A stretch of DNA of 64,000 bases from Candidatus Omnitrophota bacterium (lineage in GTDB: Bacteria > Omnitrophota > Gorgyraeia > Gygaellales > Profunditerraquicolaceae), in the NCBI GenBank assembly GCA_026387335.1, contig JAPLLX010000007.1, forward strand, positions 243-64,242, written 5' to 3'. Of the stretch, positions 41,544 to 44,765 are shown piece by piece (position 1 is the stretch's first letter; every line of letters starts with the position of its first letter). Made by a program: the position numbers and the translations under genes. Below the pieces are notes generated by a model. It had not been told where the DNA came from, searched no databases, and saw nothing but the letters and a program-made list of their open reading frames with translations.

Positions 41544-44500
41544 ATGAAAATATCAGAATTAGTTTCTAAGGACTCGGTCAATATTAATTTAAAATCCCGG
41601 ACTAAAAAAGCGGCTATAGCTGAAATTATTGACCAGCTATATAAAACCCGCAAGATCAAGAATAAAGAAGAAGTCTTAAAAGCCATCTTAAAAAGAGAAA
41701 GCGAGAATTCTACCGGTATAGGGCATGGCCTTGCTATACCGCATGCCAGGATTGAGAATTTAAGAGAGGCAATGGTTTTTATAGGCATTTCCAAACATGG
41801 CATAGATTTTTCTTCCTTGGATGCGAAGCCAGTGTATATAGTTGTGCTTTTCCTTACTCCACTTTTCGATACCGCTACTCATCTAAAGATTCTATCCAGG
41901 CTTGGCGTAATGTTTAACGATGGGCTGCTCTTGGGAGAACTGAGGAGCGCTTCATCCAGCAATGAACTATACTTTATTCTTAAACAGGGAGATCTTGAAA
42001 GAGATGATTTTCGCGCCTTAAATAAAGAAGAGATATTTCTTGAATTAGAAACCAGCGCTGATGGGCTTACTGAGACAGAAGCAAAAAGTCGCTTAGGAGA
42101 ATATGGTTCCAATAGGTTAAAAAGAATAAAAAAGACTCCCCTTCTAGTGCGTTTTGTCTCTCATTTTACGAATCTTCTCGCTATTTTAATGTGGCTTGGT
42201 AGCGGTTTATCTTTTTGGGCTCAGATGCCGGAAGCCGGATGGGCATGCATAGCGGTAATTTTTATTAATGCGATTTTTAGCTTTTGGCAGGAATTTAAAG
42301 CAGAAAAAGCGATAGAGGCATTAAAGGGACTGCTACCTTCATATGCTCGTGTAATCAGGGGAGGGGAAGAGAAGAAGGTGCTTTTAAGCGACCTGGTGCC
42401 GGGAGATATTATATTTATTGAAGAAGGGGATAGTATTCCAGCAGATGCCAGGATTATCGAGGCTCAGGAGTTAAGAGTTAACAATAGCGCATTTTCCGGA
42501 GAATCTAAGCTTTCGCATAAAATAGCCGAAGGATTTGAAACAAAAGGTGATTTTCTATGGTTAGAAATACCAAATCTTGTATTTGCAGGTACTAGCGTTG
42601 CCTCAGGTATGGGTAAAGCCGTAGTCATTGCTACCGGCATGGGCACAGAAATAGGCAAGATCGCCTATTTGACCCAAACCATTAAAGAAGAATTGAGCCC
42701 TTTGCAGAGAGAGGTAAATCGTATTAGTAAATTGATTGCCGCAATTTCGGTTATTATGGGTTTCGCCTTCTTTTTTGTAGGCTTAGCATTTACTAAGATG
42801 ACCCTTATCGCTTCAACAATGTTTGCCATAGGAATTATCTTAGCCAATGTTCCGCAAGGATTGATGCCTACGCTTACTTTGGCGCTTTCCATGGCTGTGC
42901 AGAGGATGGCAAGGAAACATGCGCTTATTAAGAAGCTTTCTTCAGTAGAAACTCTAGGTTGCACTAGCGTCATCTGTACCGATAAAACAGGTACGCTTAC
43001 TACTAATCAGATGAGTGTCAGGAAAATCTGGATTAATCAGAAGGTGATTGAGATTTCCGGGACCGGTTATGAACCAGTCGGTTCATTTAATTTTGAAGGA
43101 AAAGAGCTTCCTCCAGATTCATTTACAGAGGATAATCTTGAGCTTCTATTGAGGATAGGAAGTTTATGTAATACGGCAAAGTTAGTTGTGCCTTCAGAAT
43201 CTCAAAACTATTGGAGTATTATTGGGGATCCTACAGAAGGGGCTTTATTGACCTTAGCCCAGAAAGCAGGCTTCAATAGTGAGCAAGAACGCAAGGCGCA
43301 TATTCTAGAAAAACGTTTTCCTTTTGATTCGGTCCGTAAAAGAATGAGTTGTATAAATAAGCTCGCTAACGGGGAGTTAAATATCTTTGTTAAAGGAGCG
43401 CCTAAAGAACTCCTGGATCTTTCTACCAAAATAATTCTTGGTCATAAGATTGTTGAATTAACAGCCGAGATAAGGACAGAAATTATTTCCAGAATAAATA
43501 ATTTTGCAGAAGATGGCCTGCGCGTTCTCGGATTTGCTTATCGTAAATTTGAGGGCGAGAATGTTGCAGAGGTTACCGTTCAAACAGTAGAAAATGATTT
43601 AATCTTTATCGGAATAACGGCTATGTATGATCCTCCTCGCCCGGAAGTTAAAGATGCTGTTGCTATTTGCAAAAGAGCGGGCATACGGGTAGTTATGATT
43701 ACAGGCGATTATCAAGTCACAGCTTTGTCCATTGCTAAACAGGTTGGTATTGTTAACTCTGAAGATGCAATTGTTATTACCGGAGCGGAGTTTTCTGATA
43801 TAGATGACGATCAGCTAAAAGAAAGGTTACTTAAGCAAGAGGTTGTATTTGCTCGAGTCAATCCCGAACATAAATTGAGAGTTGTGAATATATTCAAAGA
43901 TTTGGGTAATATCGTAGCTGTTACCGGAGACGGAGTTAACGATGCCCCGGCACTTAAGCGAGCAGATATCGGAGTAGCTATGGGTTTACGCGGGACAGAC
44001 GTGGCTAAAGAATCGGCAGAAATGATACTAACTGACGACAATTTTGCCAGCATTGTTTCGGCTATTGAGGAAGGCCGTGCCGTATTTGACAATATCAAGA
44101 AATTCATTACTTATATTTTTGCGCATCTTGTCCCTGAGGCAATACCGTATATTTTCTATGCCTTGCTTAAAATCCCTGTACCTATTACGGTAATGCAAAT
44201 ATTGGCAATTGATTTGGGTACAGAAACTATTCCCGCGCTTGCATTAGGCGTTGAAAAGCCTGAGCCGGGTATTATGGAACTTGCGCCAAGGCCGAGAAAA
44301 AAGGGGGTTATTGATAAGATAGTGCTTTTCCGCGGTTACATAGTCTTGGGGCTACTTAATACAGCCGCGGTGTTAAGCGCTTATTATTTTGTTCTTTTTC
44401 AAGGAGGATGGAAGCCGGGAATGCAGCTTGAGCCTAATGACACGACATTTACAAATCCTCTGCATCTTAAGGCGATGACTATTGTTTTTGTCGGTATAGT

Positions 44501-44765
44501 GGTTATGCAAATTGCCAACATTTTTGCCTGCCGTAGCGAAAAATACTCAGCATTTAAATTAGGTTTCTTCAATAACAAGCTTATTCTTTGGGGAATTCTC
44601 TTTGAGCTTGTTTTTGCTTCCGTAATAATATATACGCCCTTTGCTCAAAAGATATTTAATACGATTGGCTTGGGATGGCAGGATTGGGGGATATTGTTTG
44701 CATTTATGATTGTTGTATTCTTCCTAGAAGAATTACGAAAAAAGATGTCTGTATTAAAAAGGTAG
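41544..44765 (+). CDS. PTS EIIA(Ntr)-like domain fused to a type-II (Na,K/Ca-like) cation-translocating P-type ATPase
   Basis: N-terminal ~150 aa carry the PTS_EIIA type-2 pattern ([19 protein letters not shown]; His codon at 41742-41744). ATPase motifs are DKTGTLT (Asp codon 42981), [11 protein letters not shown] and TGES-like SGES. TM4 reads ANVPQGL instead of PEGL. ATG at 41544 has an AGGGGG RBS. Confidence 0.85.
   Translation: [1073 protein letters not shown]

Follow-up and report, generated by a model that had tools for sequence, protein, structure and literature searches.

A c-di-AMP riboswitch-linked P2-type ATPase with a fused PtsN-like domain in Omnitrophota: a candidate regulated potassium pump

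Why should a P-type ATPase carry at its amino terminus a domain of the bacterial phosphotransferase system (PTS), and which ion would such a protein move? The question is raised by a single gene at 41544-44765, on the forward strand of a 64,000-nucleotide stretch from a Candidatus Omnitrophota bacterium (contig JAPLLX010000007.1, positions 243 to 64,242; referred to here, at its full length, as the window). The gene encodes a PtsN-like EIIA domain joined in frame to a complete P2-type pump and is preceded by a riboswitch for cyclic di-AMP (c-di-AMP); what is new here is a P2 pump whose ion site is remodelled and whose regulatory modules have no precedent. What the sequence itself shows is the architecture of the protein, how far it is conserved, the riboswitch and terminator ahead of the gene, and the gene's genomic associations. 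The pump lineage is wired to three K+-homeostasis regulators, namely RCK proteins, a PtsN-like domain and c-di-AMP, and because three separate regulators of this kind are linked to it, we regard K+ as its likely cargo.

The open reading frame (ORF) translates without interruption into 1073 codons plus a stop, and its product matches, at 100% identity over the full length, a deposited protein (P0001) from a metagenome-assembled genome labelled 'Candidatus Omnitrophica bacterium'. An alternative ATG lies at 41517; the start at 41544 is favoured by an AGGGGG Shine-Dalgarno sequence 5 nt ahead of it (41533-41538, read directly from the DNA) and by agreement with P0001. Pfam models, all above gathering score, resolve the protein into PTS_EIIA_2 (residues 6-148; 41559-41987), Cation_ATPase_N (158-223; 42015-42212), which marks the start of the pump proper about 10 residues past the EIIA domain, E1-E2_ATPase (263-458), Hydrolase (476-808), Cation_ATPase (541-630) and Cation_ATPase_C (878-1067). 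The EIIA match scores 108 bits against a gathering score of 27 and covers profile positions 2-143 of 144. An earlier note, made from the letters of this DNA alone, had proposed an in-frame fusion of an EIIA domain to a P2 ATPase and had asked for the domains to be confirmed with such models; the ORF and the full domain set bear the proposal out, and the codons that it gave for His67 (CAT, 41742-41744), Gln438 (CAA, 42855-42857) and Asp480 (GAT, 42981-42983) are exact.

The same fused architecture is found in about 120 distinct proteins, 68-100% identical and encoded on separate contigs. Genome loci were examined for the best 80 of 409 confirmed, with additional loci from close relatives (L084-L092) entering the riboswitch and Gln counts given below. 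Thirty of the 80 encode the fusion, and they are spread over Omnitrophota, Planctomycetota (Phycisphaerae, Pirellulales), Fibrobacterota, Spirochaetota and Desulfobacterota; in unfused relatives, alignment to the fusion protein starts at query residues ~150-165. Because the fusion recurs on separate contigs across several phyla, more than 100 independent contigs in all, the frameshift or assembly artefact that the earlier note had held out as a possible undoing of its claim is excluded. All-against-all clustering of the flanking ORFs of the 30 fused loci revealed neighbours conserved only among close relatives; in essence the fused gene stands alone. Public databases already contain the protein sequence under generic names ('HAD-IC family P-type ATPase', 'P-type Ca2+ transporter type 2C', 'fructose-specific IIA component'). 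A full-text literature search, covering few subscription journals, found no functional or comparative account of the fusion, of its control by a riboswitch or of the ATPase-RCK cassette described below, nor any report of an RCK-regulated P-type ATPase; this agrees with the note's statement that the fusion is functionally uncharacterised, and earlier bioinformatic mentions, for example in transporter-classification surveys, are possible.

Having established the fusion, we sought to place the pump among known P-type ATPases. Its catalytic motifs comprise DKTGT at 480 (42981-42995) with the catalytic Asp480, KGAP at 617, MITGD at 718, the hinge motif at 794 and the actuator loop SGES at 318-321, in which a Ser that is invariant in the family stands for the Thr of TGES. 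Among the NCBIfam pump models only the generic one is passed (TIGR01494, HAD-IC P-type ATPase, 291 bits against a cut-off of 62.3), which establishes membership of the superfamily. The models for the Na,K/H,K-ATPase alpha subunit (subfamily P2C; TIGR01106, 611 bits against 946), PMR1 (TIGR01522, 608 against 798), SERCA (TIGR01116, 570 against 703) and KdpB (TIGR01497, 102 against 528) all stay below their cut-offs, with the first two effectively tied. Seven relatives from other phyla likewise fall below the NCBIfam cut-offs, with P2C and PMR1 scores near each other. The best matches among solved structures, running from residue 160 to the end, are Na,K-ATPase alpha (519 bits), H,K-ATPases (511) and Listeria LMCA1 (506).

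Inspection of the membrane segments (TM) revealed a signature of the Na,K/H,K type. With the alpha subunits of those enzymes the protein shares TM4 NVP(E/Q)GL (here NVPQGL, residues 435-440, 42846-42863, with Gln438 in place of the PEGL Glu), TM5 'PE' (here within YIFAHLVPE, residues 857-865, 44112-44138) and TM6 IDLGT(D/E) (here within AIDLGTE, residues 888-894, 44205-44225), as well as a bulky basic residue where H,K-ATPase has Lys791. The likeness of TM4 and the P domain to Na,K-ATPase that the note had pointed out holds residue for residue in alignment with human alpha3. The protein differs from the P2C enzymes in being bacterial, in carrying the EIIA domain, in its changes at Asn776, Asp808, Asp926 and Glu954, and in lacking both the SYGQ loop and a beta or FXYD partner: its TM7-TM8 loop is short, the SYGQ beta-docking stretch of Na,K-ATPase falls in an alignment gap, and no gene for a beta- or FXYD-like partner is conserved beside the 30 fused loci. 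A 128-aa ORF at 44776-45162 was considered as a beta-subunit-like partner and rejected, having neither a Pfam match nor a homologue beside other fused loci; it begins 10 nt past the ATPase stop, has a signal-peptide-like N-terminus and is followed by a minus-strand tRNA gene (45183-45263).

The pump is not a P2C member as curated, though it is P2C-like within the membrane, and it reads as a member of a widespread prokaryotic lineage of P2 ATPases that has been placed in no curated subfamily. Prokaryotic pumps resembling Na,K-ATPase have never been characterised, which a 2023 review by Palmgren acknowledges as an open problem (PMC10654040). The archaeal and bacterial members of this broad lineage are 47-55% identical to the query core and lie below all NCBIfam cut-offs. 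Those of Methanosarcinales and ANME archaea have the TM5 Ser-Asn and TM6 Asp of Na,K-ATPase and are without EIIA domain, RCK genes or riboswitch, whereas the query has His-Leu in TM5, Glu in TM6, Gln438, the EIIA fusion and the riboswitch. Such natural ion-site variants, with either Glu or Gln in TM4, either His-Leu or Ser-Asn in TM5 and either Glu or Asp in TM6, offer material for dissecting selectivity and stoichiometry.

Ion-binding positions were mapped by phmmer alignment to Na,K-ATPase alpha3 together with family alignments. Relative to pig alpha1, Glu779, Asp804 and Gln923 are kept as Glu865, Asp890 and Gln989, and Glu327 has become Gln438, Ser775 His861, Asn776 Leu862, Asp808 Glu894, Asp926 Asn992 and Glu954 Leu. 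Over the eight positions from Glu327 to Asp926 only three are identical, and the site is not that of a P2C member. The carboxylates that contribute to the third Na+ site (Asp926 and Glu954) are absent, with Asn and Leu in their places; Gln989 and Asn992 lie in the TM8 motif QIAN (44508-44519).

The crystal structure of the gastric H,K-ATPase, by comparison, contains a single K+ at site II, whose main ligands are the carbonyls of Val338, Ala339 and Val341 and the side chains of Glu343 and Glu795; Glu820 is a weak ligand and Asn792 does not ligate K+ (PMC6706254). Lys791, at the position of Ser775, fills site I and enforces one K+ per cycle, and Glu343 is protonated, hence neutral, with K+ bound; E343Q brings a mild loss of K+ affinity and E343D is inactive (PMC6706254). 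All five main ligands have counterparts in our protein, in the carbonyls of Leu433, Ala434 and Val436 and the side chains of Gln438 (for Glu343) and Glu865 (for Glu795); Asp890 is the counterpart of the weaker Glu820, and His861 occupies the Lys791 position. Judged by these residues, the pocket looks like a one-ion exchange site able to accumulate K+ steeply. Because the gastric Glu is protonated and its change to Gln mild, Gln438 appears compatible with K+ binding rather than disabling, and it is better read as a permanent mimic of the neutral, K+-contacting Glu than as a defect.

The note had reported that Gln replaces the Glu of PEGL, which is true, and the replacement proves to be the trait of a subclade, not of the family. 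Among the 120 closest homologues 114 have Gln at this position and six have Glu; in the locus alignment Gln is confined to a branch of Omnitrophota and Planctomycetota, with Glu in all other fused and unfused relatives. Glu forms fall at or near the base of the Gln clade in a neighbour-joining tree (all trees here were built by this method and carry no support values).

How is the gene controlled? Immediately upstream lies a c-di-AMP riboswitch aptamer of the ydaO/yuaA class (41302-41455), which matches Rfam model RF00379 at full length (positions 1-134 of 134) with 83.6 bits against a gathering score of 38 (E = 5.6e-18). It is followed at 41457-41486 by an intrinsic terminator, AACCAGAGAA-AACA-TTCTCTGGTT and then TTTTTT, which was found by a terminator scan and is present in both the minimum-free-energy and the centroid fold; a terminator-like hairpin with a T-run follows the aptamer in nearly all riboswitch-bearing loci. 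Between this expression platform and the ribosome-binding site the leader folds show a GC-rich hairpin, CCCGCCACTCCGATATGGCGGG (41503-41524), which the scan lists as terminator-like on the minus strand. A candidate promoter of the sigma-70 type (TTGACA, a 16-nt spacer and TG-TATATT; 41204-41231) agrees with the consensus at 11 of 12 positions and has an extended -10 TG, but promoter-like sites are no more frequent in the region than in shuffled sequence, and it is a candidate only. A further hairpin with T-run (41270-41297) separates the candidate promoter from the aptamer, which it directly precedes; should it be what terminates the preceding SBF-family gene, the real promoter must lie elsewhere.

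The leader has the layout of an OFF switch, from which we predict the response to c-di-AMP. In another c-di-AMP riboswitch, an aptamer with a separate terminator behind it worked in vitro as an OFF switch (PMC9337991). In Bacillus thuringiensis the kdpFABC operon likewise encodes a P-type K+ uptake system shut off by a c-di-AMP riboswitch (PMC6488665); its P1A pump KdpB needs the channel-like KdpA, whereas the present protein is a self-contained, ten-helix P2 pump.

The same aptamer precedes the orthologous gene in 15 further loci, 16 in total. It stands directly upstream in 15 of 17 loci with Gln (the window, L001, L002, L004-L012, L027, L088 and L089, but not L003 or L092) and in one of six closely related loci with Glu (L091, but not L084-L087 or L090), and Rfam scans of more distant fused Glu loci found it in none of those scanned. 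The association between Gln438 and the riboswitch is strong but not perfect; strict coupling, which we had considered, is rejected by L091 on the one side and by L003 and L092 on the other. In these counts a motif scan and Rfam scans replaced a custom covariance model, which was dropped when a MAFFT alignment of six aptamers proved poorly structured in its 5' half.

Of the links to K+, the strongest comes from the unfused relatives. Directly behind the ATPase gene, on the same strand, they carry two tandem RCK genes of the KtrA/TrkA type, each encoding a protein of 214-243 aa with TrkA_N and TrkA_C domains; carriers belong to Bacillota, Actinomycetota, Chloroflexota, Deinococcota, Desulfobacterota and Pseudomonadota, and include the cultured Thermoanaerobacterium saccharolyticum and Meiothermus hypogaeus. 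Cytoplasmic regulation of K+ channels, of Ktr/Trk transporters and of K+/H+ antiporters is the standard task of RCK proteins. A profile built from ten RCK proteins of the cassette was run against every ORF of every locus. It found RCK genes downstream of the ATPase in 32 of the 40 unfused loci whose sequence continues for 1.4 kb or more beyond it (as a pair in 30), in none of 25 fused loci and nowhere in the 64-kb window (naive Fisher p = 2.6e-11). The first RCK protein of a pair groups in one clade and the second in another, cleanly and in 32 of 32 pairs, a split which indicates that RCK-A and RCK-B are ancient paralogues inherited with the pump. No TrkH or KtrB was detected beside the cassette in the loci sampled, where genes beyond it are unrelated or on the other strand; the idea that the RCK genes belong to an adjacent Ktr/Trk operon is rejected for these loci, and the conserved unit is ATPase, RCK-A and RCK-B. 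RCK regulators are thus common to this unit and to KtrAB/TrkAH, in which the membrane partner is TrkH or KtrB where here it is a P-type ATPase. In the fused clade, the EIIA domain appears to have taken the place of the RCK regulator.

Several loci show variations on this arrangement. At L042 (3139-8760) two unfused ATPase copies stand in tandem and the RCK pair follows the second. At L043 a second RCK pair lies upstream of the ATPase, and a histidine kinase gene with a DUF4118 membrane domain, which is also present in KdpD, follows ATPase-RCK-RCK directly on the same strand (10241-11788). At L058 a c-di-AMP riboswitch core with its 5' partner motif is found on the minus strand (~1027), ~1.7 kb upstream of an unfused ATPase-RCK-RCK unit, and presumably controls a divergent gene. 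At L086 an 806-aa P2-like ATPase (347-2767) is encoded directly upstream of the fused gene.

Two further loci tie the fused clade to K+ transport genes. In a member of the Phycisphaerae (L008) a gene of the TrkH family (PF02386, 189 bits) stands between the riboswitch and the ATPase gene and ends 5 nt ahead of the ATPase start; given this spacing behind the riboswitch the two genes form one riboswitch-controlled operon. At L090 a c-di-AMP riboswitch (76.9 bits, 6423-6593) precedes a 49-aa ORF and kdpA (7179-8246), 1.4 kb behind a Glu-type EIIA-ATPase gene that itself lacks one; since kdpA adjoins the ATPase, this genome has both Kdp and the fused pump. The relation to K+ or to Na+ and K+ that the note had proposed is thereby backed by three independent associations, namely the riboswitch in 16 loci, the trkH operon and the RCK cassette, and is considerably strengthened, with the cargo ion itself one that we infer. 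No inference of the note is contradicted.

The remaining module is the EIIA domain. Among solved structures, PtsN proteins fill the first four places (E. coli 1A6J leads with 69.5 bits, and those of Neisseria and Burkholderia follow, down to 52.6), and sugar-specific EIIAs reach 22 and 20.6 bits, the latter being EIIA-Mtl. The NCBIfam models for PtsN itself stay below cut-off (TIGR01419, 76.4 against 138.7; NF008145, 76.7 against 221), as does the fructose EIIA domain model, which at 92.8 against 103.5 scores above them; 'PtsN-like', the wording of the note, is right, and 'PtsN' is not. The nearest free-standing homologues (33-41% identity), in Omnitrophota (Ca. Kaelpia), Desulfobacterota and other phyla, carry Ntr-type labels. 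The predicted phospho-acceptor His67, within GLAIPHAR, aligns with the His of AIPHG in E. coli PtsN, and a second conserved EIIA type-2 His, His113 (41880-41882), aligns with the PtsN motif THL, so the N-terminal domain both matches EIIA models and keeps the aligned His. LAIPHA fits the context [LIVM]-A-[LIVM]-P-H-[GAC], the classical phosphorylation-site pattern of type-2 EIIA domains, and the phosphosite expected of PF00359 is present. None of His67, Arg69, His113, Ala64, Thr105 and Pro106 varies in any of the 30 fused loci, and His67 is also constant in 56 of 56 close homologues. Mean identity in the 30 loci is 47% for the EIIA domain and 65% for the pump core, and the invariance of His67, Arg69 and His113 despite the lower figure argues that phosphoryl transfer is retained.

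PtsN is known to regulate K+ transport post-translationally, acting among others on TrkA and KdpD. In its unphosphorylated form it also binds and inhibits the K+/H+ antiporter YcgO, countering activation by that protein's RCK domain (PMC11808508). The present domain shares the phospho-acceptor and the second His with PtsN; PtsN is diffusible, whereas this EIIA domain is covalently fused to its presumed target. Regulatory domains at the termini of pumps, switched by signals, are likewise found in P2B and P3A enzymes (ACA, PMCA, and plant and fungal H+-ATPases), in which they are short tails that bind calmodulin or 14-3-3 proteins (PMC10654040), whereas the module here is a folded, 150-residue domain of phosphocarrier type.

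These observations can be joined into one mechanism: a c-di-AMP OFF switch, single-site import of K+ in exchange for H+ or Na+, and control by the EIIA domain through phosphorylation of His67. We judge this combined reading to stand at about an even chance of being correct. At high c-di-AMP, a signal of sufficient K+ and turgor, the transcript would end at 41486; when c-di-AMP drops, under K+ limitation or osmotic upshift, the pump would be made. It would then swap cytoplasmic H+ or Na+ for external K+, one ion per cycle at site II, with His861 occupying site I as Lys791 does in the gastric enzyme. The EIIA domain, tethered ~10 residues ahead of a stretch that contributes to the actuator domain, would be an inbuilt regulator: phosphorylation of His67 through a carrier of HPr or NPr type would switch the domain's contact with the catalytic domains, and the EIIA domain would take over the role that the RCK pair has in unfused relatives. 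In evolutionary terms, the EIIA-fused clade has lost the RCK pair, and the branch of Omnitrophota and Planctomycetota afterwards gained Gln438 and the riboswitch.

Several points weigh against this mechanism and open the way to alternatives. Which ion is moved, how many per cycle and in which direction, and likewise phosphorylation of the EIIA domain and the sign of its regulation, are all inferred; phosphorylation may either activate or inhibit the pump. An AlphaFold2 model of the fusion, computed with 56 homologues, is confident only in the EIIA and nucleotide-binding parts (mean predicted local distance difference test score 61.9, predicted template-modelling score 0.43) and is unusable for domain docking or site geometry. 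Because the fused clade is monophyletic in the neighbour-joining tree, the contrast between RCK genes and fusion is effectively one event of gain and loss; the mutual exclusion of RCK and EIIA rests on essentially one or a few evolutionary events, and the same holds for the association between Gln438 and the riboswitch. Finally, c-di-AMP riboswitches also control osmolyte and cell-wall genes, not K+ importers alone.

Within the ion site, Asn776, a K+ ligand in Na,K-ATPase, is lost to Leu862, and His861 could equally be the built-in counter-ion of a pump without K+ counter-transport. A Lys or Arg in TM5 acts in this way in P3A, P4 and some P1B pumps. The protein would then extrude Na+ (or H+), with His861, the basic residue at the Ser775/Lys791 position, triggering dephosphorylation in the manner of the built-in counter-ion concept (PMC10654040). 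Induction at low c-di-AMP and pairing with TrkH may on this account help the cell under salt or osmotic stress, for instance by recycling the Na+ brought in by Ktr-type K+ uptake; c-di-AMP riboswitches answer osmotic stress generally (PMC9337991), and the L008 co-operon with TrkH is compatible with such a role too. Set against this are the Asn and Leu at the Na+ site III positions Asp926 and Glu954, which leave fewer acidic ligands, the dedicated RCK subunits, which are hallmarks of K+ transporters, and the counterparts to the five main site II K+ ligands of the gastric pump and to its weaker Glu820; we consider extrusion without K+ uptake improbable, if a competitor to be reckoned with.

A second alternative concerns the EIIA domain and appears to us about equally improbable. 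The domain might not be phosphorylated by the PTS at all, and might instead be a structural or ligand-sensing fold, as in the EIIA-like cytoplasmic domain of the band 3 anion exchanger, leaving control of the pump to the riboswitch and to direct binding of metabolites. In keeping with this, a crude motif scan for enzyme I (EI, by its active site), HPr/NPr (by His15 of HPr) and HprK (by its P-loop) found none in the window or in the 80 loci (~1 Mb), its only P-loops being of the ABC type, no PTS genes were found near one free-standing Omnitrophota EIIA protein, and the NCBIfam PtsN models stay below cut-off; Pfam searches of 36 window ORFs (32.6-63.9 kb) likewise found no PTS, Trk/Ktr, Kdp or diadenylate cyclase genes. 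These absences also bear against the mechanism proposed above. Speaking for phosphorylation are His67, Arg69, His113 and the AIPH motif, which do not vary across five phyla in so divergent a domain, the fit to the classical phosphosite pattern, and the existence of free-standing Ntr-type EIIA proteins in the same phyla. Of the two controls envisaged by the note, the transcriptional one stands at sequence level as a riboswitch with terminator, and the PTS one, for which the motif scan found no EI, NPr or HPr, is argued from the invariance of those three residues.

The last alternative is a divalent-cation pump for Ca2+, Mg2+ or Mn2+, of the bacterial PMR1/LMCA1 type. At L084 a gene of the Na_Ca_ex (CaCA) family (6218-7354) overlaps by 14 nt a Glu-type ATPase gene (P0020, 74% identity) that lacks a riboswitch and has only a 20-nt spacer upstream. 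The arrangement hints that the Glu-type pumps may act on other cations or in a different ion context, and counts against K+ to that extent. That overlap, the near ties between PMR1 and P2C models and between LMCA1 and Na,K-ATPase, and source annotations as 'P-type Ca2+ transporter type 2C' or 'magnesium-transporting ATPase' notwithstanding, a divalent cargo is very unlikely: the PMR1 and P2C scores are both below the curated cut-offs, the Ca2+ ligands of SERCA are altered at Glu309 (Gln; E309Q abolishes site II Ca2+ binding in SERCA), Asn768 (Leu), Asn796 (Asp) and Asp800 (Glu) with Glu771 and Thr799 kept, TM5 'PE' and TM6 'IDLGT' are motifs of Na,K/H,K pumps, and the RCK, c-di-AMP and TrkH associations favour K+.

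Import of K+ by a single-site exchanger under riboswitch and EIIA control remains the reading that we prefer, and if it is true, the protein would represent a second kind of bacterial ATP-driven K+ uptake pump besides Kdp. Regulation of a P-type ATPase by RCK subunits or by a fused phosphotransferase domain would likewise be a first. The lineage would also provide a natural experiment in which PtsN-type and RCK-type control appear to be mutually substitutable. More tentatively, and with the balance tipping slightly to the negative, the lineage as a whole may be a hitherto unrecognised class of self-contained bacterial P2 pumps that import K+ as single-site H+/K+ or Na+/K+ exchangers, the functional counterpart and possibly the source of the animal Na,K- and H,K-ATPases, with interchangeable regulators: a dedicated hetero-oligomeric RCK ring in most phyla, elsewhere a fused PtsN-like domain that responds to His phosphorylation, and, as an addition of Omnitrophota and Planctomycetota, a c-di-AMP riboswitch.

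Other features were noted in the window and in the flanks of related loci. Directly upstream of the riboswitch, on the same strand, the window encodes an ArsP_1 permease and an SBF-family protein (bile acid:Na+ symporter or ACR3-like; 39170-41186), which may be an arsenic-related pair and is not conserved beside orthologues of the pump. Riboswitches not connected to the pump gene lie in the flanks of L001 (thiamine pyrophosphate, 727-838) and, as tandem glycine riboswitches on the minus strand, of the Thermoanaerobacterium loci L032 (2559-2731) and L034 (5001-5173). Further downstream in the window, smpB (46337-46792) is followed at once by the transfer-messenger RNA (tmRNA) gene (46792-47222, 154 bits), which has, relative to the Rfam model, an unaligned insertion of ~75 nt after the region of the tag reading frame; an Amidase_3 ORF (47183-48355) overlaps the 3' end of the tmRNA gene, and its true start is probably later. 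Beyond a tRNA gene (55306-55379), the window contains a run of genes resembling a mobile or defence island (55551-63931), with a TPR protein, ORF6N, a MazG-like protein, a 792-aa Schlafen-group-3-type helicase fused to an S24 peptidase, an SRA-HNH nuclease and three ORFs without a Pfam match.

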